Source of the DNA: a virus
Taxonomy: Duplodnaviria; Heunggongvirae; Uroviricota; Caudoviricetes
Length of the DNA: 44,611 bases
IMG/VR virus record: IMGVR_UViG_2703718850_000006
Span: 1 to 44,611 of that record
Reading direction: 5' to 3' (one strand)
Every line of letters begins with the position of its first letter. The stretch's first letter is position 1. The position numbers were made by a program, and so were the translations under genes. The notes beneath the pieces are model-generated. The model was given only the letters and a program-made list of their open reading frames with translations. It did not search any database and was not told where the DNA came from. This document shows, in pieces, positions 29,310 to 37,098 of the stretch.

Positions 29310-29614
29310 ACCACAAATACGCCACTCAAATGTTAATGCCATATAACAAAACAAAACATACGAATAACACATATTACATCAAATACATCATTGTTATTTT
29401 TCAATGAAAAATGAGTAAATAATGTATTTCATTAATTAAATTCCGCATTACACAAAAATATCGACAAATTATACCAACGCGCATAAATGAGATCTTGATC
29501 ATATTATCAATCACTAAATTAAACTTGCCTCTTGAAATAACCACATTGATTAGATGAATATTTGTCGCGCAGTGACATCATTTTTTAAAAATAGTTCAAA
29601 AAAAAGGGTTCGTG

Positions 29615-30718
29615 ATGAAAAAATTAACGGTGGCAATTTCTGCTGTGGCTGCATCAGTACTGATGGCGATGTCTGCTCAGGCAGCAGAGATTTATAATAA
29701 AGACAGCAACAAGTTGGATCTGTACGGAAAAGTTAATGCTAAGCACTACTTCTCCTCTAACGATGCAAATGATGGCGACACAACTTATGCTCGTCTGGGT
29801 TTCAAAGGCGAAACTCAGATCAACGATCAACTGACTGGTTTCGGTCAGTGGGAATATGAATTCAAAGGAAACCGTACTGAAGAACAGGGAGCAGCCAAAG
29901 ATAAAACCCGTCTTGCATTTGCAGGGCTTAAATTCGGTGACTACGGCTCCGTCGATTACGGTCGTAACTACGGTGTAGCATACGATATCGGTGCATGGAC
30001 TGACGTTCTGCCAGAATTCGGTGGAGATACCTGGACCCAAACAGATGTATTCATGACTGGTCGCACCACTGGTGTTGCAACTTATCGTAACAACGACTTC
30101 TTTGGTCTGGTTGATGGTCTGAATTTTGCTGCACAGTACCAGGGTAAGAATAATCATGATCGTAGTAGCTTAGATAACTACACCAAAGGCAATGGCGATG
30201 GTTTTGGTTTCTCTGCGACCTATGAATACGAAGGTTTCGGCATTGGTGCAACGTATGCGAAATCTGATCGTACCGACACTCAAGTCAAATTGGGTAAACT
30301 TCTCCCAGGAGTATTTGCTTCCGGCGAAAATGCAGAAGTCTGGGCTGCAGGTCTGAAATACGACGCAAACAACGTTTATCTGGCAACAACCTATTCAGAA
30401 ACCCAGAATATGACTAAATTCGCAGATTACTTTGTGGCTAATAAAGCACAAAACTTCGAAGCTGTTGCACAATATCAGTTCGATTTCGGTCTGCGTCCGT
30501 CTGTTGCTTATCTGCAATCAAAAGGTAAAGATCTTGGCATTTTTGGTGACCAAGATTTAGTCAAATATGTTGATGTTGGCGCAACTTATTATTTCAACAA
30601 AAATATGTCTACCTTCGTTGATTACAAAATCAACCTGCTTGACAAAAATGACTTTACTAAAGCTCTTGGTGTAAACACTGACGATATCGTTGCTGTAGGT
30701 ATGGTATACCAGTTCTAA
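29615..30718 (+). CDS. nmpC: outer-membrane porin, NmpC/OmpD-like (OmpC family)
   Basis: ORF 29612..30718 trimmed to ATG; signal peptide [23 protein letters not shown] and general-porin hallmarks; opposite strand between Q and late genes as in DLP12. Confidence 0.85.
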
Positions 30719-30898: not shown

Positions 30899-31282
30899 TT
30901 AATTAAGCTTAGTAACATCAATATCCATCTCTAAGCAAATGTCTAATGCCATTAACATACCTTCGATTATTCCCTCTGCTTTCTGTAACCTTTTCCCGAT
31001 ATACCCATCAGAGCAATTATGCTTCCGCGCCAGCATCATAAACGTCATCCCACCAACATAATAATCCACCAGCAAATCATGTAAGCCATTGTTGCTCTTT
31101 TTCAGACAGGCCATACATCCACAAATGATCATCGCGTCATCGTCACAGCATTGCGGACGAGATCTTACTTTTGAAGGAATTAATCCCTTAAAACCGGCGG
31201 CAACGGACGACCAGGTCACATCTTCATGATTATTAGCCGCCCACGCTCCCCAACGCTCAAGAACCATCTGAATATCACGCAT
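30899..31282 (-). CDS. Q: late antiterminator Q (QuuD-like)
   Basis: 127-aa [25 protein letters not shown]...; matches the DLP12 QuuD/YbcQ antiterminator family as I recall it. Confidence 0.8.
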
Positions 31283-31539
31283 CAGCGCAGTACCTCCTGC
31301 ACCAGTTTTTCAAACTTTCCAACTTTGGTTTCCAGCTCTGCCACACAATCCACCAGTTCATCCACTGCTTTTTGTGCGCGGTGTTTCGCCTGCATCAGTT
31401 CCCTGAGCGCTGGCACCATATCCCGACGAATGGCATCTTTTGTTACACCTGTTTTTTCCAGTTGTTCCGCCTGTCGCAACATTTCCTGTGCCTGTTTACG
31501 TAATTGTTCAGGGGTAAAAGTCATTATCTGGTTGTTCAA
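31282..31539 (-). CDS. hypothetical protein (85 aa, predicted helical)
   Basis: ORF translationally coupled to Q (ATGA); overlaps the 3' end of the DnaB-like gene. Confidence 0.45.
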
Positions 31540-32935
31540 AAGAAACGCTCCATCTTCTGCTGTCAGTTCTTTTATTGCTGTATCTACGCGGCTGGGGCTG
31601 CTGCATTGGGGTGGAAAGAATCTGTGCGCTTTCCTGGTCTACGGGCAGAAAATGTCCGTTATAAAAACGCCGGTAAATCGTCCCCAGAGAACCGTTACGT
31701 TGTTTCGTGATATTGATTTCTGCAATGCCTCTGGCCTGCGTATCCGGGTTGTACACTTCATCCCTGTAAAGCATCAGAATGATGTCTGCATCCGCCTCTA
31801 TTTCTCCGGAATTTTTCAGGTCTGAGTTCATGGGACGTTTATTTGGTCTGGACTCCACACCGCGGGAGAGCTGACTCAGCGCAATCAACGGAAAACCACC
31901 GGATTTTGCCAGGCCTTTAAGCCCCTTTGAGATTTCACCCACGGCAAGGTCATGACGCCCCGTGGTTCGGGTTTTTATCAGCCCGAGATAATCAACCACC
32001 ACCAGTGCCGTTTCCGGATGTTTAATCAAATGGTGTTTCGTTGTTACGCATATCTCGTCAATGGTCAGGTTCGCCTGGTCCACCATCCAGATATTGCGCC
32101 CGGTCATCCGCCCCACCCCTTGTGAGAAACGCGCCCAGTCTTCGTCTTCAAAGTGAGCGACAGATTTCAGACGTGATACCGGCATTCCTCCAGCCGCAGA
32201 TACCATGCGCTCACCAATCTGGATGTTCGCCATTTCCATTGTGAACAGAAGAACACCATGCCCCTGCTCAGTCACCTTGTCGATGATATCCAGCGCCAGT
32301 TCTGTTTTCCCCATCGAAGGGCGCGCCGCGATGAATATCAGGTCTCCTGGCTCCATGCCGCCTGTTTTTGCATCCAGTTCATCAATACCGGTCATCAACG
32401 TCCTGGATTTCTCCAGCCCCTGATTCCGGCATTCAACACGGTCAACCACCTCCGGAAGCACATCATCAATATGTACCGGCTGAATAATGCCCTTTTCCGT
32501 CGACAATGAGGCCATCATGTTTTGCGCATCCTTCAGGGCATCTTCAGCTGCTTCACAGGTATGCGCATCGCGTAATTTCTGCAATGCTTCGGCCAGTGTT
32601 TTTTCTGCATCACGCAGTGCGGCATTGCGTCGCAGTGCTGCAACATAGTGTTCCAGAGATGACTTCACCCAGGTTTTACGCCCGGTATCAGTAATCACCG
32701 GGGCAAGTTCCGGCATCTCATTGCACAACAGCACAGGATCAATCACGCCGGACACACGGGCCTGTCTGCAGATGCCTGTGTAGATATCCCGGTACGGTCG
32801 TACAGAAAAAACGTCCGCCGGTAGTGTGACCAGAATATCCATCACTTCCGGATCTGCCCCACGCAAAAAGAATGCGCCAATAACAGCACCTTCCAGATCA
32901 TCGTTACGCCAGACCGGGCTTTTCTGGCTGATCAT
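31508..32935 (-). CDS. replicative DNA helicase, DnaB family
   Basis: 475-aa ORF with Walker A ARPSMGKT and DnaB-type C-terminal RecA fold motifs. Confidence 0.9.
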   Translation of the reverse strand: MISQKSPVWRNDDLEGAVIGAFFLRGADPEVMDILVTLPADVFSVRPYRDIYTGICRQARVSGVIDPVLLCNEMPELAPVITDTGRKTWVKSSLEHYVAALRRNAALRDAEKTLAEALQKLRDAHTCEAAEDALKDAQNMMASLSTEKGIIQPVHIDDVLPEVVDRVECRNQGLEKSRTLMTGIDELDAKTGGMEPGDLIFIAARPSMGKTELALDIIDKVTEQGHGVLLFTMEMANIQIGERMVSAAGGMPVSRLKSVAHFEDEDWARFSQGVGRMTGRNIWMVDQANLTIDEICVTTKHHLIKHPETALVVVDYLGLIKTRTTGRHDLAVGEISKGLKGLAKSGGFPLIALSQLSRGVESRPNKRPMNSDLKNSGEIEADADIILMLYRDEVYNPDTQARGIAEINITKQRNGSLGTIYRRFYNGHFLPVDQESAQILSTPMQQPQPRRYSNKRTDSRRWSVSFEQPDNDFYP

Positions 32936-33819
32936 GCTGCCACACCTCCGGCATGTGCACGGTAGCTGGGCCAGTTAAAGGACAACAGGTTACGGCCACC
33001 ATCCGTAACCCTGTCAGCAATACGTGGACTGATGTATGCCCACAACGCCTTCGGTGAAAGATTGCTGATCAGGATGGTTGGCAGAATGCTTTCGTACCGG
33101 GCATTGATAATTTCCTGAAGAATGGCCATTTCCGCCGCGCTACCAAACTGGACACCCACTTCGTCGATAATCAGCAGATCCAGTGATGCATAATGCTCAA
33201 TCACCTCATCCGCAGTTTTTTCGCTGTCATTCCGCCAGCAGTTTTTCACAGCCCGGGTCAGGCGCATCACGTCGGTGATCTCAACACTGGCGAGATAGTT
33301 GCGGATGACATATTTTGCCATCGCAACCGCCAGGTGATTTTTCCCGGTGCCACAACTGCCAGTCAGCACGAGATTTGTGCCGTTCTCCAGAACATCCGCC
33401 CAGTTTTCGGCATAGCGACGACAGGCAGCAAGATTTCTGGCTGCGTCAGGATTAATCTCCTGATAGTTTTCAAACTCACAGTCACGAAAACGCAGTGCAA
33501 TTCCGGCGTTATCAGTCAGTTCTTCCGCCTTCAGGGACGACAACTCCATAATCACATCGTTGATTTCAGCACTCAGGCAGTGAGGGCAGTGTGAAATTTT
33601 CTCTCTGTCCTCGCCATTACGATCCCCCCACACCAGAATATGCGTGTGATATTCGCCATGTTTTTCGCAATATCCGCGACCTTCACGCATCCGGCAGGAA
33701 CGATAAGGCCACGGTTTTTCCCCAGTCTCCGCAAACGCCATCTCAGACCGTAACTCATCCATCCGCGCCTGTAGTCTTGTTTGTTGTTCACGCAGGTTAA
33801 ACGTCATCATCGCTGTCAC
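32932..33819 (-). CDS. helicase loader, DnaC/IstB-like AAA+ ATPase
   Basis: 295-aa ORF with Walker A GSCGTGKNHLA and Walker B LLIIDEVG; ATGA-coupled to DnaB-like gene. Confidence 0.85.
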   Translation of the reverse strand: MTAMMTFNLREQQTRLQARMDELRSEMAFAETGEKPWPYRSCRMREGRGYCEKHGEYHTHILVWGDRNGEDREKISHCPHCLSAEINDVIMELSSLKAEELTDNAGIALRFRDCEFENYQEINPDAARNLAACRRYAENWADVLENGTNLVLTGSCGTGKNHLAVAMAKYVIRNYLASVEITDVMRLTRAVKNCWRNDSEKTADEVIEHYASLDLLIIDEVGVQFGSAAEMAILQEIINARYESILPTILISNLSPKALWAYISPRIADRVTDGGRNLLSFNWPSYRAHAGGVAA

Positions 33820-33820
33820 C

Positions 33821-34813
33821 TCAGAATGTTAAGTTGTCACTGGATTTACCGAATTCGTCAGACATGGCACCAAGACCAGACAGGATATCTATCTGTCGCT
33901 GTCGCCCACCTCCGGGAGCGGCTGGCTGTTGCCAGAAATCTTCGAAGTGACGATCGGGTCCAAAGAACGTCGCAGCCTGCTTCACGAACTGTGTGCCGGT
34001 ATTTCCTGTGACACGTACCCAGGCGGCATAACGCCTCACGCCATCAAGCATGGTTTCGGGTGTCACACCTTCCCTGATTCGGGCTTTCCAGGCTTTGAAG
34101 GCTGCCGACTTGGAATTACCACCAGCACGTTTGGGATATTCCTGCCAGGCCTGTTCAAATTCTGGTGAATATTCCTGTCGGGCAGAACGCGCTGGTGCAG
34201 ACGCGTCAGCGGATGCGCCAATAGTGTTTTTAGTCTCCGTTGTAATCTCTGTAGTAATCTCTGTATTTGTATCAACATTCGGCGTATCCCCTGTTCCGTT
34301 ATGACGTTGGGGGGTGTTCCGTTTTAACGTAATAGCTGTGTCGCTGACTGTGTTATTGCTGTTGCTTTCTGACGAAACAGAAGAAGGTGTGGTGATGGCA
34401 GCAATTGCCTGTGGGTTGATCCCGACAAACAAAATATTGCTGCATTTCACCCCGTCTAGCATTTCCACCGTGCGTAAATCCAGAGTAATAAACCCGGCAT
34501 CGCGAAGACGCTTCAGCGCATCTGCGGTTTCCCTTTTCCCAAAACCAAACTGCTCAGCAAACGCCTGATAGCTTCTTTGCAGCTTGTCACCCTGAAAACG
34601 CTTGCGATATCCCAGTAAAGCCCCGGTATGCTCATCCCGGACTTCTGTCGGGCGGTACCAATAAACGATCTCTGAGAGCAGGGCGATAGCGGTCGCATCC
34701 GGACGACCACTGGGTAGCCGAATATGTTTCCACCAGTTCGCTGGTGTGACATTGCCGGAAATATTAATTTGACCAATAGCTATAACTTCCGGTGTGGGGG
34801 CGTAACGACTCAT
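33821..34813 (-). CDS. replication initiation protein (O-like replisome organiser)
   Basis: 330-aa ORF at the O position; winged-helix-like N-terminus; internal direct repeats. Confidence 0.65.
   Translation of the reverse strand: MSRYAPTPEVIAIGQINISGNVTPANWWKHIRLPSGRPDATAIALLSEIVYWYRPTEVRDEHTGALLGYRKRFQGDKLQRSYQAFAEQFGFGKRETADALKRLRDAGFITLDLRTVEMLDGVKCSNILFVGINPQAIAAITTPSSVSSESNSNNTVSDTAITLKRNTPQRHNGTGDTPNVDTNTEITTEITTETKNTIGASADASAPARSARQEYSPEFEQAWQEYPKRAGGNSKSAAFKAWKARIREGVTPETMLDGVRRYAAWVRVTGNTGTQFVKQAATFFGPDRHFEDFWQQPAAPGGGRQRQIDILSGLGAMSDEFGKSSDNLTF
34230..34277. repeat. iteron-like direct repeats inside the O-like gene (candidate origin)
   Basis: Tandem GTAATCTCTGTA x2 perfect plus flanking degenerate copies; encodes ...TEITTEITTE... 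Confidence 0.5.
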
Positions 34814-35109
34814 ACAGCCTCCTTACGCGGCATAACAATGGTGTAACCCCGGGCAGGCTGGAACCGGGCTTTTGCATCAATAGTGAGCGTTGCAATTTTT
34901 CGGATACGCAGATACCCCGCCCTTTCCAGGGCCAGGGTTTCTCTGAACATTGCCTGTTTTGAACAGCAACAAAAATCGGCAAGGACCTGGTGATCAATAA
35001 CCCTCTCACCTTCACCGTCTGAAGAACCCGACATCAAAACACGCAACATAATCAGGCGCTGAATCGGATTATCGAAAACACTTCCGCATACAAACTGAAA
35101 ACAGTTCAC
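34810..35109 (-). CDS. hypothetical protein (99 aa)
   Basis: ORF ATGA-coupled to O-like gene. Confidence 0.5.
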   Translation of the reverse strand: MNCFQFVCGSVFDNPIQRLIMLRVLMSGSSDGEGERVIDHQVLADFCCCSKQAMFRETLALERAGYLRIRKIATLTIDAKARFQPARGYTIVMPRKEAV

Positions 35110-35330
35110 ACGGCACCTCCCAGGCGTTTAAACATTTTTCCGGACTGAAACACCGCCAGTGGGTAGCTAATGGTGTAGTTACGCCCCAGTAATTCACACA
35201 CAACTTTCTGGTTTTCGGTGCTGACCAGACAAACCCGCAGAACGTGACCGTTGCTGGTGGCGAACCACTGCCCCACACGGGGGCAACGGTTGTATCGGTG
35301 ATACAGGGAATTAACGATGCGGCGAATCAT
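35106..35330 (-). CDS. hypothetical protein (74 aa)
   Basis: ORF ATGA-coupled to downstream gene. Confidence 0.45.
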   Translation of the reverse strand: MIRRIVNSLYHRYNRCPRVGQWFATSNGHVLRVCLVSTENQKVVCELLGRNYTISYPLAVFQSGKMFKRLGGAV

Positions 35331-35560
35331 GGGTACACCTCCCGCACATCAGCCATGAGCATTTTGCTGGCTGTTTCCAGCGCCTGGTCGGCGCTAATTT
35401 GCATGACAGCCAGTGAATGAGGAACAAAAGCACCGGCATATTCTGTTTCACTGGTGGCGTGTTTATGCGCCATATCTGCAATCACAGAAATCTCAATCAA
35501 CGCATCCATCAGTGTCCTGATAACTGCAACGGTTGTATCCGGACGAGTGTTATTGCGCAT
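35327..35560 (-). CDS. hypothetical protein (77 aa)
   Basis: ORF with RBS GGGAGGTG, ATGA-coupled downstream. Confidence 0.5.
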   Translation of the reverse strand: MRNNTRPDTTVAVIRTLMDALIEISVIADMAHKHATSETEYAGAFVPHSLAVMQISADQALETASKMLMADVREVYP

Positions 35561-36215
35561 GGCGCACCTCCCATTGATTACGACAGAAAGTGGAGTGATT
35601 CAGGTGGGTTTCAGCTTCACGGAATGCTTCAATGCAGCTCTCGTAGTACCGCATTGTGCGCAGACTTAACCCAAGCTGAAGCATCATCAGACCATCAAGG
35701 GTGATGTAATAACCTCGCAAAGAGTCACCATAGATGTGATAAGTACCCGGTATGAAATTGCGGGTGAAAAATTCGCGCGAGCAGTTCAGGTACTCGATTT
35801 TGTCGACGATGTTCTGGTGCATGCGCTTGAAATGACAGGCAACATGCAGAGAGAAAATAACGGCCTTGCCGTTGACGACTTCGATTTTGAGGAATGGGGA
35901 AGTTGGGACAGTAGCCATGATGGCAGCCTCCGTATGCAATGGATAACTTCCACCACCGGAGCTGCGAAACTCATGGGTGGTGAACTGAACAGGGTTCGCA
36001 GTACCGGCGCATACGGAAACCGGCGAGCCTTTCGGCTCCCCTGCCCAGCCCACCATAATTCTGGCGTGCGTGAGCGCGGACGATAAAAAAGACGCTGGCG
36101 CGTCATATATCGCCGTATGCAATTCCGGGCTGCGACCCCCGGCACCCGCTTTATAAGGTGCAGAGACAGTGTAACGTTCCAAAAGTGCAGAATCAATATT
36201 CAGGTAGCGGATCAT
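35550..36215 (-). CDS. hypothetical protein, duplicated gene copy A (221 aa)
   Basis: ORF with strong RBS GGGAGGTG; near-identical to copy B over about 200 residues. Confidence 0.6.
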   Translation of the reverse strand: MIRYLNIDSALLERYTVSAPYKAGAGGRSPELHTAIYDAPASFLSSALTHARIMVGWAGEPKGSPVSVCAGTANPVQFTTHEFRSSGGGSYPLHTEAAIMATVPTSPFLKIEVVNGKAVIFSLHVACHFKRMHQNIVDKIEYLNCSREFFTRNFIPGTYHIYGDSLRGYYITLDGLMMLQLGLSLRTMRYYESCIEAFREAETHLNHSTFCRNQWEVRHAQ

Positions 36216-36871
36216 AGGTGCACCTCCCGTTGATGACGACGGAAAGCGGAATGTACCTGGACGGTTTCAGCTTCATGGAATGCATCAATACAGCTCTCGT
36301 AGTACCGCATTGTGCGCAGACTTAACCCAAGCTGAAGCATCATCAGCCCATCAAGGGTGATGTAATAACCACGCAGGGAGTCACCATAGATGTGATAAGT
36401 ACCCGGTATGAAATTGCGGGTAAAAAATTCGCGTGAGCAGTTCAGATACTCGATTTTGTCGACGATGTTCTGGTGCATGCGCTTGAAATGGCAGGCTACA
36501 TGCAGGGAGAAAATAACGGCCTTACCGTTAATAATCTCAATTTTGAGGAATGGGGAAGTTGGGACAGTAGCCATGATGGCAGCCTCCGTATGCAATGGAT
36601 AACTTCCACCACCGGAGGTTCCAATCTCACTGGTGGTGAACTGAACAGGGTTGGAACTACCGGCGCATACGGAAACCGGCGAGCCTTTCGGCTCCCCTGC
36701 CCAGCCCACCATAATTCTGGCGTGCGTGAGCGCGGACGATAAAAAAGACGCTGGCGCGTCGTATATCGCCGTATGCAATTCCGGGGTTCCAATCCCGGCA
36801 CCCGCTTTATAAGGTGCCGGAACAGTGTAACGTCCCGAAATTGCAGAATCAATATGTTGGTTGCGGATCAT
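36212..36871 (-). CDS. hypothetical protein, duplicated gene copy B (about 219 aa)
   Basis: ORF 36212..36892 trimmed to MIRNQ start; ATGA-coupled to copy A. Confidence 0.6.
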   Translation of the reverse strand: MIRNQHIDSAISGRYTVPAPYKAGAGIGTPELHTAIYDAPASFLSSALTHARIMVGWAGEPKGSPVSVCAGSSNPVQFTTSEIGTSGGGSYPLHTEAAIMATVPTSPFLKIEIINGKAVIFSLHVACHFKRMHQNIVDKIEYLNCSREFFTRNFIPGTYHIYGDSLRGYYITLDGLMMLQLGLSLRTMRYYESCIDAFHEAETVQVHSAFRRHQREVHL

Positions 36872-36888
36872 TTTGTACCTACTCGCCG

Positions 36889-37098
36889 TCAATCCGCGTT
36901 TTCGCGCTGATTCCAGTCATGAACAGCACGTTCTTTCGAATCAGGGATCTGGTTTGCGTTACAGCAAGTACATGCGACGTAATAACCATCATCGCCATCC
37001 AGAAAATATTTCACCTCAATGAGTTGTACTTCCGGATTTCCGCAGAACGGGCAAGGTTTCAGATCGACATCACCAGTTACACACGTCTTGGTTTGCAT
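36889..37098 (-). CDS. Lar-family restriction alleviation-like protein (zinc ribbon)
   Basis: 69-aa ORF with KPCPFCG...C.CC motif as I recall it in Rac Lar/RalR. Confidence 0.65.
   Translation of the reverse strand: MQTKTCVTGDVDLKPCPFCGNPEVQLIEVKYFLDGDDGYYVACTCCNANQIPDSKERAVHDWNQRENAD

Follow-up and report, generated by a model that had tools for sequence, protein, structure and literature searches.

A duplicated 'ash family' gene in a lambdoid pR operon as two probable tandem antisense-RNA switches of the P1 immI, P4 CI and Gifsy-1 isrK type

In the immI system (c4, icd, ant1/ant2) of phages P1 and P7, the C4 antisense RNA is processed by RNase P to an RNA of about 77 nt that represses antirepressor synthesis. 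The C4 RNA defines the Rfam family RF01695, and the annotated order of elements in P1 is a1-b1-C4(b',a')-a2-b2, with b2 placed over the ribosome-binding site of the next ORF, icd. The sites of P1 (TTGACAG/CTGTCAA) and P7 (TTAGCAG/CTGCTAA) differ by 2 nt per site set and are compensated three ways, and such coherent changes of a few nucleotides are the stated basis of the heteroimmunity of the two phages (PMC6906374, PMC12197685). The immunity region of P4 (seqA, the CI RNA with seqB, and seqC) yields Rfam matches to isrK (8615-8692) and C4 (8420-8507) in the same order; CI pairs with an upstream and a downstream site, which is the known mechanism of immunity (summarised in PMC4825925), and the pairing is reported to lead to premature transcription termination of the replication operon. 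In the third system, isrK-orf45-anrP-isrJ of Gifsy-1, isrK (RF01394) has a promoter and a terminator of its own, and downstream of it come the C4-like RNA STnc1160 inside orf45 and then the effector gene (Hershko-Shalev et al. 2016, PMC4825925). There, IsrK acting in trans activates translation of the effector, and single mutations in a1 abolish this activation, from 796 to 1-2 Miller units (PMC4825925).

The window analysed here is the whole 44,611-nt stretch of the IMG/VR virus record IMGVR_UViG_2703718850_000006 (Caudoviricetes). Its minus strand carries two adjacent ORFs in tandem repeat units of about 660 bp (Table 1). As a preliminary description had proposed, they belong to the early-right (pR) operon, where a cro-like gene lies on one side of them and the replication genes on the other. 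That description viewed them as fresh duplicates of a gene of unknown function, whose protein products were diversifying in specificity in the manner of anti-defence or host-takeover proteins. The region is instead very probably a pair of tandem antisense-RNA switches of the P1 immI, P4 CI and Gifsy-1 isrK type. Each unit by itself is ordinary; what is modestly new is the stacking, together with an apparent mis-annotation of the RNA part as an 'Ash' protein.

Table 1. Coordinates of the two units and of their elements within the window
Feature	Position	Strand	Details
Unit 1 (upstream)	36212..36871	-	219-aa 'Ash-family' ORF as annotated, counted from its ATG
Putative promoter PisrK-1	36824..36852	-	TTGATT, 17 nt, TACACT
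isrK-1	36741..36817	-	Rfam RF01394, 63.6 bits (gathering 50)
isrK-1 site a1	36792-36786	-	UUGGAAC, in hairpin-2 loop
isrK-1 site b1	36776-36769	-	GCAUACGG
isrK-1 Rho-independent terminator	36760-36747	-	plus U6
C4-1 antisense RNA	36629..36716	-	Rfam RF01695, 83.0 bits (gathering 45)
orf45-like AUG in C4-1	36712-36710	-	
C4-1 site b'	36673-36665	-	UCCGUAUGC, hairpin-2 loop
C4-1 site a'	36657-36651	-	GUUCCAA, 3' single-stranded stretch
Target region 1	36583..36624	-	a2 UUGGAAC 36624-36618; b2 GCAUACGGA 36593-36585
Rha ORF-1	36212..36574	-	120 aa, start MATVPTSPFLKIE, tail end ..QREVHL
Unit 2 (downstream)	35550..36215	-	'Ash-family' ORF, 221 aa
Putative promoter PisrK-2	36168..36196	-	TTGATT, 17 nt, TACACT
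isrK-2	36085..36161	-	Rfam RF01394, 58.8 bits (gathering 50)
isrK-2 site a1	36136-36130	-	GUCGCAG
isrK-2 site b1	36120-36113	-	GCAUACGG
isrK-2 terminator	36104-36091	-	plus U6
C4-2 antisense RNA	35973..36060	-	Rfam RF01695, 83.3 bits (gathering 45)
orf45-like AUG in C4-2	36056-36054	-	
C4-2 site b'	36017-36009	-	UCCGUAUGC
C4-2 site a'	36001-35995	-	CUGCGAA
Target region 2	35927..35968	-	a2 UUCGCAG 35968-35962; b2 GCAUACGGA 35937-35929
Rha ORF-2	35550..35918	-	122 aa, tail end ..QWEVRHAQ

The tandem duplication is real, with homology well beyond chance: the two proteins are identical at 190 of 217 residues (88%; BLASTP, E = 1e-145), and the DNA is 91.4% identical over 651 nt in a gapless alignment with 56 nucleotide differences. 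The ORF of unit 1 extends over 36212..36892 (226 aa when read from a TTG and 219 aa when read from the ATG at 36871) and contains the putative promoter, isrK-1, C4-1, the target sites and Rha ORF-1. Homology between the copies begins at that ATG, exactly at ATGATCCGC, and has its 3' limit at GGGAGGTGC(A/G)CC, and in the ATGA at 36212-36215 the stop codon of unit 1 overlaps the ATG of unit 2. The sequence GGGAGGTG, which had been described as a ribosome-binding site within the duplication unit, is found at 36221-36228 and 35565-35572; two further occurrences are at 35336-35343 and 35114-35121, and the linker GGGAGGTG..ATG is shared by successive gene junctions. Apart from the tandem arrangement itself, nothing points to a single gene falsely duplicated during assembly, and this explanation has a negligible probability: the roughly 9% of differences between the copies are structured and mutually compensated, the flanks of the two copies differ, and the same two-gene layout, with two adjacent 'ash family protein' genes, is present in the complete E. 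coli genome NZ_CP027544 and the same architecture on many independent contigs. The copies are not fresh, because dS between them is 0.18 (Nei-Gojobori; dN = 0.066) and each has closer relatives in other prophages than the neighbouring copy, with relatives 97-100% identical to each unit existing elsewhere. Nor is the gene one of unknown function, as PGAP names its relatives 'ash family protein' and its N-terminal half corresponds to the Rfam families isrK and C4.

Both RNA families are matched on the sense strand and at full length in both units, with positions 1-87 of the 87-position C4 model covered in each, and the Gifsy-1 cassette is in turn matched by an HMM of the unit (E = 7e-36). The 3' ends of both isrK sequences consist of a terminator-like hairpin, GACGCGCCAGCGTC, plus T6. 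The a1/b1 leader is here a terminated IsrK-type small RNA, unlike that of P1; isrK-1 is a leader of the c4-a1b1 or seqA-like type. Upstream, the putative PisrK-1 ends 6 nt before the isrK +1, which is the relative position of TTGACA-17-CTATAT before the Gifsy-1 isrK. The motif is conserved in the cassette family and matches 8 of 12 consensus positions, one below the scanner threshold of 9/12, and for this reason it was missing from the promoter-scan list; we infer that it would be active in both units. A plus-strand T-arm-like sequence, GGTTCCAATCC, had suggested a tRNA-like element, which was rejected as ARAGORN found no tRNA or tmRNA in the region and the Rfam matches explain the sequence as C4/isrK.

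The predicted RNA structures are supported by covariation among 49 distinct relatives' sequences. All 27 pairs of the C4 fold are kept (100% of 1323 cells paired, with 7 compensatory pairs) while slid controls are 27-49% paired, and the minimum free energy fold agrees with a long closing stem around two hairpins. The pairing of C4 with its target (b'-b2 plus a'-a2) is likewise complete (100% of 784 cells), with changes on both sides at 12 of 16 pairs; none of 500 shuffles reached the observed value, and slid controls were 24-39% paired. The pairing of IsrK with C4 (a1-a' plus b1-b') is 97.6% kept, with 12 of 15 pairs compensatory and again 0/500 shuffles. The a1-a' helix corresponds to helix b-I of Gifsy-1, which was proven there by compensatory mutations, the proven pairs G28-C162 and G31-C159 falling within it (PMC4825925). 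At the target, b2 overlaps the Shine-Dalgarno sequence GGAGG (36587-36583 for Rha ORF-1 and 35931-35927 in unit 2), which is located 8 nt before the Rha AUG.

Within each unit one 7-mer, as sequence or as complement, occurs at three places, and the a1/a'/a2 set is UUGGAAC/GUUCCAA/UUGGAAC for unit 1 and GUCGCAG/CUGCGAA/UUCGCAG for unit 2, while Gifsy-1 has the a allele UUGGCGU. Thus the a address differs at 3 of 7 positions (UUGGAAC versus UUCGCAG) and is compensated at all three sites, a situation like that of P1 and P7, and the SD-masking b sites are identical between the units. It was correctly noted earlier that the differences between the copies are localised, at the termini and internally, but the internal differences form two patches rather than one, at codons 27-29 (IGT versus GRS) and at codons 72-73 plus 81-85. 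These variable patches, the internal one and the one towards the N-terminus, are a-type recognition sites (a1, a', a2) as known from c4 of phage P1. Hence the localised differences do point to diversified specificity, as proposed, although of mutually complementary RNA sites and not of a protein. What looked like protein paralogs under positive selection is an RNA-RNA recognition code that changes coherently at three sites.

That the ORFs are instead recent protein duplicates, whose products diverge by positive selection for different targets, is a highly improbable reading. It can draw on intact ORFs with RBS-like sequences and on dN/dS values near one in the variable parts (0.91 for codons 1-32, 1.16 for codons 70-86 and 1.27 for codons 194-217), but the patches are three-way covarying sites in which Watson-Crick complementarity is kept, the same 7-mer or its complement recurs within each unit, the 'Ash' part lacks codon periodicity, and the age of the copies and their closer relatives elsewhere do not fit recent duplication. 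The terminal divergence does not reflect specificity either; the 5' part is the promoter spacer, and the 3' tail follows the type of junction, ending in ..QREVH in 24 of 25 cases when another cassette follows. No anti-defence link was seen for the units in the RNA- and protein-family searches made here.

From these elements a switch can be proposed for each unit of about 656 bp, read on the minus strand in the order sigma-70-like promoter, IsrK (a1, b1, terminator), C4 (a', b'), a2/b2 and Rha ORF. On read-through or pR-derived transcripts, b' and a' of C4 would pair with b2 and a2, either in cis or in trans after processing, and the pairing would mask the Rha ORF's ribosome-binding site, so that the effector stays off. 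IsrK, in which both the a and the b sequence of the target recur, would compete for C4 as a target mimic and so allow translation, as in Gifsy-1. In P4, by contrast, the reported effect of the pairing is on transcription and not on the translation of an antirepressor. Since the a addresses differ and are compensated, the two copies should carry different regulatory 'addresses', with the IsrK/C4 partners of the two units at least partly insulated from each other: the predicted a'-a2 duplexes amount to -8.8 and -10.5 kcal/mol for cognate and to -4.3 and -6.0 kcal/mol for non-cognate partners. The stronger, SD-masking b helix (predicted b'-b2 duplex, -20.5 kcal/mol) is however common to both units, which makes cross-regulation likely and any 'orthogonality' only partial.

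The annotation of the region as protein derives from its first ~97 codons, which Pfam and PGAP call 'Ash' in each ORF and which are occupied by the putative promoter, isrK and C4. Phage_ASH (PF10554) matches with 64.6 and 62.5 bits (gathering 26) at residues 15-106 and 22-113, the region coinciding with isrK, C4 and the target sites, and the old 'cI protein' ORF of P4, which lies over the CI/C4 RNA, matches Phage_ASH just as the ORFs of the window do. Amino-acid-level constraint was not found in codons 1-97 by codon-position diversity, the ratio of position 3 to the mean of positions 1 and 2 being 0.89 there against 4.61 over the Rha domain, to which the coding signature is thus confined. About 1,200 database proteins match the query at E ≤ 1e-5. 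It seems that Phage_ASH and the 'ash family' proteins are the isrK/C4 RNA cassette in conceptual translation, in which case the real gene would be the downstream Rha ORF.

Given the open frame and the usual ATG and SD, some translation through the RNA part might nevertheless occur. The long 'Ash' frame is open in 66 of 66 distinct units, compared with 1.4 and 3.9 stops per unit in the other two frames; most contexts have an ATG in this frame 51-57 nt before the isrK +1, often behind a good SD (GGAGGTG); and a single indel, of 3 nt, occurs in the cassette alignment (A1). Moreover, the orf45 frame across the C4-like RNA of Gifsy-1 is translated and is required for expression of anrP, the nucleotides of orf45 being conserved and its amino acids variable (PMC4825925). 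These features are compatible with a dual use, in which the full 219/221-aa frame would also be translated, for example on pR read-through, besides encoding the RNAs. In one variant the peptide would be irrelevant, and the passage of ribosomes would melt the isrK terminator and the C4 fold and so bypass the switch; in another, translation from AUG-54 would give an N-terminally extended Rha isoform, as with Ant1/Ant2 of P1. We regard dual use as possible but rather doubtful, as the 'Ash' part shows no constraint on amino acids, the start codon is missing in a few contexts (L043, L079 and L081), and the units are related, so that the open frame may be mere inheritance. In addition, the equivalent region of P4 and Gifsy-1 does not consist of a single long ORF continuous with the effector. 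The orf45 of Gifsy-1 ends where anrP begins (AUGA). In the present units the orf45-homologous AUG is present and invariant but its frame runs for 46 codons into the Rha AUG with no stop; a separate orf45-type ORF with a stop overlapping the effector start is accordingly absent here.

The credible protein of each unit is the 120- or 122-aa Rha-domain ORF that starts at the internal SD-AUG, in frame with the leader ORF, where P1 has icd and the large Ant1/Ant2 after its cassette. Between the copies, purifying selection on codons 87-193 is strong (dN/dS 0.03), the two Rha domains differ only by I13V and I14V, and an AlphaFold2 model (mean pLDDT 89) combines a winged-helix-like beta-alpha core with a long helix at the C-terminus; the product is thus a real, folded and constrained protein. 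It consists of a Rha-type domain and a short helical tail of 25 aa, the domain being all that it shares with the Rha family (PF09669, TIGR02681) and the Stx Rha-N antirepressors. Pfam Rha (PF09669) aligns over the whole domain with 29.8 and 29.0 bits (cut-off 29.9) and TIGR02681 gives 36-39 bits (cut-off 45.95), the E-values for Rha models ranging overall from 1e-6 to 5e-10, and several near-invariant residues of the family are replaced. The ORFs show 40-43% identity to the N-terminal parts of proteins that carry the annotation antirepressor or Rha in Stx1a phages, mEp460 and Salmonella phage 118970_sal3, and in the Stx1a phages these genes follow the same RNA cassette, which is about 88-90% identical there.

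By parallel with the cassettes that control Ant in P1 and AnrP in Gifsy-1, the Rha protein may have an antirepressor-like role. The biochemical role of the effector is a guess, because the match scores lie below the cut-offs, domain searches found no ANT/KilAC C-terminal domain typical of antirepressors, the model had no significant structural neighbour, and BLASTP gave no homology to the ORF6N-type AnrP of Gifsy-1 (E = 0.5-0.9), on which ground an AnrP homologue was rejected as the effector. The window also encodes a protein with ORF6N and ANT domains at 37098-37952, with no cassette in front of it, and an S24-type repressor at 38417-39109. A hairpin followed by a U-run inside the Rha ORF is conserved without compensatory change and is a candidate for a regulated terminator.

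The described systems are single: P1 has one cassette under a C1 operator, P4 a single copy, and Gifsy-1 one cassette after the late antiterminator gene antQ, whereas here two are stacked in a lambdoid pR operon. No report of tandem or stacked C4/IsrK cassettes was found in the literature searched, which took in few subscription journals, so that this absence is weak evidence. Among related prophage loci, arrays are frequent, E. coli and Stx prophages often carrying 2-3 switches with different addresses (28 of 82 loci; copy number 1 to 3). A junction query of complete E. coli genomes gave 140/5426 at ≥80% coverage, which is an upper bound only, because the search also joins non-collinear pieces of single units. 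The sample comprises 8 a' and 12 b' alleles in 24 observed combinations, and in none of the 28 multi-cassette loci is the same a'/b' pair repeated, although 0 observed against 1.3 expected is not statistically compelling. An a address is shared in 1 of 23 arrays, against 20.6% expected for random pairs, a result that goes in the expected direction but is weak and not independent.

One could argue that unequal or illegitimate recombination left the second unit behind as a selectively neutral by-product and that stacking as such has no function. The region from cro to the replication genes is highly mosaic, the closest genome, strain C5, having quite different genes there; the copy number varies; the shared linker could drive the shuffling of cassettes; and the lack of repeated address pairs carries little statistical weight. 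Such an origin without function is nonetheless unlikely, since no element is missing from either unit and compensation holds at all six sites, both Rha ORFs are under purifying selection, a addresses are shared within arrays less often than in random pairs, and the junctions between cassettes are conserved, as seen in the ..QREVH tails, which indicates that arrays persist and spread.

As the cassettes of P1 and Gifsy-1 control antirepressor-type genes, a stacked arrangement could have consequences for cross-talk, immunity and prophage induction in polylysogenic pathogens, including those with Shiga-toxin phages. A tentative and so far speculative extension is that a combinatorial RNA 'immunity code', made up of the different a/b addresses of stacked cassettes, operates between lambdoid prophages, both co-resident and incoming. 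If so, having two or three addresses could allow a prophage to silence antirepressor-like genes in several relatives as they enter, an incoming phage with two addresses could escape silencing by the resident prophage, the address sites would be in an arms race, and translation of the always-open 'Ash' frame would bypass and override the switch after the firing of pR.

An exact-pattern scan with one genome per species recovered 12 cassettes in other Enterobacterales (Brenneria, Sodalis, Edwardsiella, Citrobacter and others); within 8-kb stretches it showed no second cassette adjacent, a result uninformative about arrays, and one Symbiopectobacterium contig carried two cassettes on opposite strands.

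The tandem repeat is real: two minus-strand ORFs, 36212..36892 and 35550..36215, adjoin in the ORF listing of the window, share a stop/start overlap (ATGA, 36212-36215), and are 88% identical as proteins (190/217, E = 1e-145) and 91.4% identical, gap-free, as DNA. Homology has its exact 5' limit at ATGATCCGC, so that the upstream copy is best started at 36871 and not at the TTG at 36892, and its 3' limit at GGGAGGTGC(A/G)CC. The preliminary description took the copies to be fresh, which is not borne out by their overall divergence (dS = 0.18, dN = 0.066). It was right that divergence is localised, as non-synonymous differences lie only in codons 1-32, 70-86 and 194-217 (dN/dS about 1), while codons 87-193 hold 15 synonymous and 2 non-synonymous differences (dN/dS 0.03). 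Its reading of the patches as diversification of a protein is not supported. In copy 1 the 9-mer ATTGGAACC stands in each of the two N-terminal patches; in copy 2, ..TCGCAGC takes its place in each, and a third patch carries the reverse complement, which indicates base pairing rather than protein function, as Rfam confirmed. What is repeated is an antisense-RNA switch of a known family, stacked in two copies, and the diverging patches are its a-type address sites, altered coherently at three positions.

Each unit, or cassette, carries an isrK RNA and a C4 antisense RNA (gathering scores 50 for RF01394 and 45 for RF01695), and both isrK copies are closed by terminator-like hairpins with U6; ARAGORN found no tRNA at the cassette region. 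The recognition sites follow the nomenclature of the P1 record, which is annotated in the order a1-b1-c4-a2-b2-icd, with b2 at the icd ribosome-binding site. Covariation was assessed on 80 related IMG/VR loci, from which 60 cassettes, 49 of them distinct, were aligned (alignment A1). In the b'-b2 and a'-a2 helices 100% of 784 cells are paired, with both-side changes at 12 of 16 pairs; for a1-a' and b1-b' the figures are 97.6% and 12 of 15. No shuffle in 500 reached the real value in either case, and slid controls were 24-39% and 31-47% paired, respectively. The internal fold of C4 is likewise paired in 100% of cells, with 7 pairs changed on both sides. At least 8 a' alleles and at least 12 b' alleles occur in the family, in 24 combinations.

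Features of the window, by position, with the cassette elements last
Feature	Position	Strand	Remarks
IS009	846-1044	-	near tail-fibre end; strong Rfam match, 206.9 bits
tRNA-Gly(TCC)	27419-27491	-	
N6/N4 DNA methylase	27710-28756	-	
OmpC-like porin gene	29612-30718	+	adjoining Q
Q antiterminator	30899-31282	-	
Replication genes	31508-34813	-	
Three small ORFs	34810-35560	-	
Two cassettes	35550-36871	-	
Lar (restriction alleviation)	36889-37098	-	
ORF6N+ANT (KilAC) protein	37098-37952	-	
cro-like gene	38029-38328	-	
S24-type repressor	38417-39109	+	
Integrase	43412-44611	+	
Phage_ASH (PF10554) regions, minus strand	36554-36829; 35898-36173		
isrK, unit 1	36741-36817	-	RF01394, 63.6 bits
isrK, unit 2	36085-36161	-	RF01394, 58.8 bits
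C4 antisense RNA, unit 1	36629-36716	-	RF01695, 83.0 bits
C4 antisense RNA, unit 2	35973-36060	-	RF01695, 83.3 bits
a1, unit 1	36792-36786	-	UUGGAAC
a1, unit 2	36136-36130	-	GUCGCAG
a', unit 1	36657-36651	-	GUUCCAA
a', unit 2	36001-35995	-	CUGCGAA
a2, unit 1	36624-36618	-	UUGGAAC
a2, unit 2	35968-35962	-	UUCGCAG
b1, both units		-	GCAUACGG, same in both
b', both units		-	UCCGUAUGC, same in both
b2, both units		-	GCAUACGGA, same in both; overlaps Shine-Dalgarno (SD)

Annotation presents these units as proteins: Pfam finds Phage_ASH above threshold (residues ~15-106) and a borderline Rha domain in each ORF, PHROGs labels both as transcriptional regulators, and PGAP calls relatives 'ash family protein'. 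The 'Ash' half, however, is RNA and not a constrained protein. Over 66 distinct full units, nucleotide diversity at codon position 3 relative to the mean of positions 1 and 2 is 0.89 in codons 1-97, as expected without protein constraint, against 4.61 in the clearly constrained Rha domain. Moreover, the historical 'cI gene product' ORF of phage P4 (locus L083, 8168-8584, minus strand) matches PF10554 and overlaps the Rfam C4 match, that is, the CI RNA, with isrK just upstream; Phage_ASH and the PGAP label thus seem to come from conceptually translating the isrK-C4-target cassette. In some relatives (proteins P0001, P0009 and P0030, 341-344 aa; loci L080/L081, ~3600-4580) one Rha ORF is preceded by two nested RNA cassettes that differ from each other, the first followed by only ~20 Rha codons and then by the divergent second; annotation pipelines read these as a single 342-aa 'Ash' protein.

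The frame itself is stop-free in 66 of 66 units, the other two frames having 1.4 and 3.9 stops per unit, and an in-frame ATG just 5' of the -35 box is kept in most contexts, often after GGAGGTG. In Gifsy-1, orf45, a frame over the C4-like RNA, is translated and required for effector expression, although its amino acids are not conserved (PMC4825925). Taken together, these points suggest that ribosomes moving through part of the cassette may have a role even if the peptide has none. An invariant orf45-like AUG (AAUUAUG/GUGGG, the slash marking the end of the AUG; 36710-36712 and 36054-36056, minus strand) lies directly 5' of the site at which mature C4 begins in P1/P7 records (GGUGGGG...), so that RNase P processing, should it occur here, and initiation at this AUG would be mutually exclusive.

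The protein proper would begin at an internal Met at codon 100 behind a perfect SD (GGAGG, 8 nt, AUG), so that the two Rha ORFs encode 120 and 122 aa. AlphaFold models the protein with confidence (pLDDT 89); a search for solved structures returned no significant neighbour, and the best, weak resemblances of the model are to winged-helix-like DNA-binding domains. A hairpin with a U-run lies ~45 nt inside each Rha ORF (36514-36530 and 35859-35873, minus strand; codons NGKAVIFS) and is kept across the 66 units with changes only from G-C to G-U. Pairing between C4 and its target could act on it as an attenuator or terminator, as happens at P4 timm; alternatively, it may simply follow from codon conservation.

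Both the 'c4 antisense RNA' and 'c4-a1b1' motifs were already defined by Weinberg et al. (2010), and a single unit is ordinary. The antQ-anrP interval of Gifsy-1 matches the unit HMM (E = 7e-36; a allele UUGGCGU/ACGCCAA). There, the G28-C162 and G31-C159 pairings, which map to the a1-a' helix, were proven by compensatory mutation (Hershko-Shalev et al., PMC4825925); single a1 mutations abolish IsrK trans-activation (from 796 to 1-2 Miller units), and IsrK in trans switches on translation of orf45 and anrP, AnrP inducing the prophage (PMC4825925). The Gifsy-1 promoter (TTGACA-17-CTATAT) has a putative counterpart at the same position in the window (TTGATT-17-TACACT); we infer both its use and the direction of control. 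Between P1 and P7, a and b each change at 2 nt, with compensation in all three copies, and these differences are the stated basis of the heteroimmunity of the two phages (PMC6906374, PMC12197685). Unlike these systems, the window has two cassettes within the pR operon and an orf45-like frame fused to the effector; the latter has only a Rha domain, is unrelated to AnrP and may have an antirepressor-like role. The Rha ORFs share ~40% identity with the N-terminal portion of Stx-phage 'Ant'/'Rha' proteins, whose genes have the same cassette in front. What is modestly new, then, is that different addresses are stacked and that the leader ORF and a Rha-only effector are fused in frame, along with the annotation problem.

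Scanning 82 loci with the HMM gave a single cassette in 54 loci, two cassettes in 25 and three in the other 3. Among 23 within-array pairs from 19 distinct arrays, none is alike in both a and b (5.7% at random), one shares its a address (20.6%) and one, that of the window, its b address (15.1%), a suggestive trend towards avoiding repeated addresses that is weak because the loci are non-independent. The window is unusual in this sample in that the SD-masking b helix is common to both units (predicted b'-b2 duplex -20.5 kcal/mol), so cross-talk between them is plausible and any insulation would depend on the a sites alone, with predicted a'-a2 duplexes of -8.8 and -10.5 kcal/mol for cognate and -4.3 and -6.0 kcal/mol for non-cognate partners.

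Recent duplication in situ was rejected, as each unit has nearer relatives in other loci than its neighbour. In its RNA part, unit 1 matches a single-unit locus (L003) at 100% identity, and in unit 2 the RNA part is 98.9% identical to those of loci L075 and L016 and the Rha part 97.1% identical to that of L019. Across loci L002-L081, the tail of a Rha ORF is ..QREVH(L/P/Q) in 24 of the 25 cases where another cassette comes next, and ..QWEVRP, ..RHV or ..RHAQ where the ORF is terminal. The C-terminal 'divergence' therefore reports junction type, and the common tails point to a shared origin of cassette-to-cassette junctions; the 5' 'divergence' falls in the promoter spacer, the discriminator region and the upstream junction. 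The best reading is that two alleles which already existed were put in tandem, or that recombination reshuffled an old array. Four gene junctions in a row (36221-36228, 35565-35572, 35336-35343 and 35114-35121, minus strand) have the same linker, GGGAGGTG-N4-6-ATG/GTG, which may act both as a coupling ribosome-binding site and as a handle for recombination that shuffles cassettes; ORF 35106..35330 starts with ATGATTCGC (MIR..), as both units do.

The window is a mosaic lambdoid E. coli prophage. Its ORF6N+ANT gene, directly after the cro-like gene, encodes the same protein type as anrP of Gifsy-1 but, unlike anrP, has no isrK/C4 cassette upstream, and the Lar gene comes next. The cassette family is present in 390 phage records, mostly Stx phages, and in other Enterobacterales. 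The best genome match, E. coli strain C5 (97.4% over 80% of the query), differs from the window between cro and the replication genes (L086, NZ_CP010122, 1698000-1710000), and this slot is an exchange hot spot. In place of the two cassettes, strain C5 carries two longer Rha-family genes, a DUF4222 gene and a RelE/ParE toxin-antitoxin pair.
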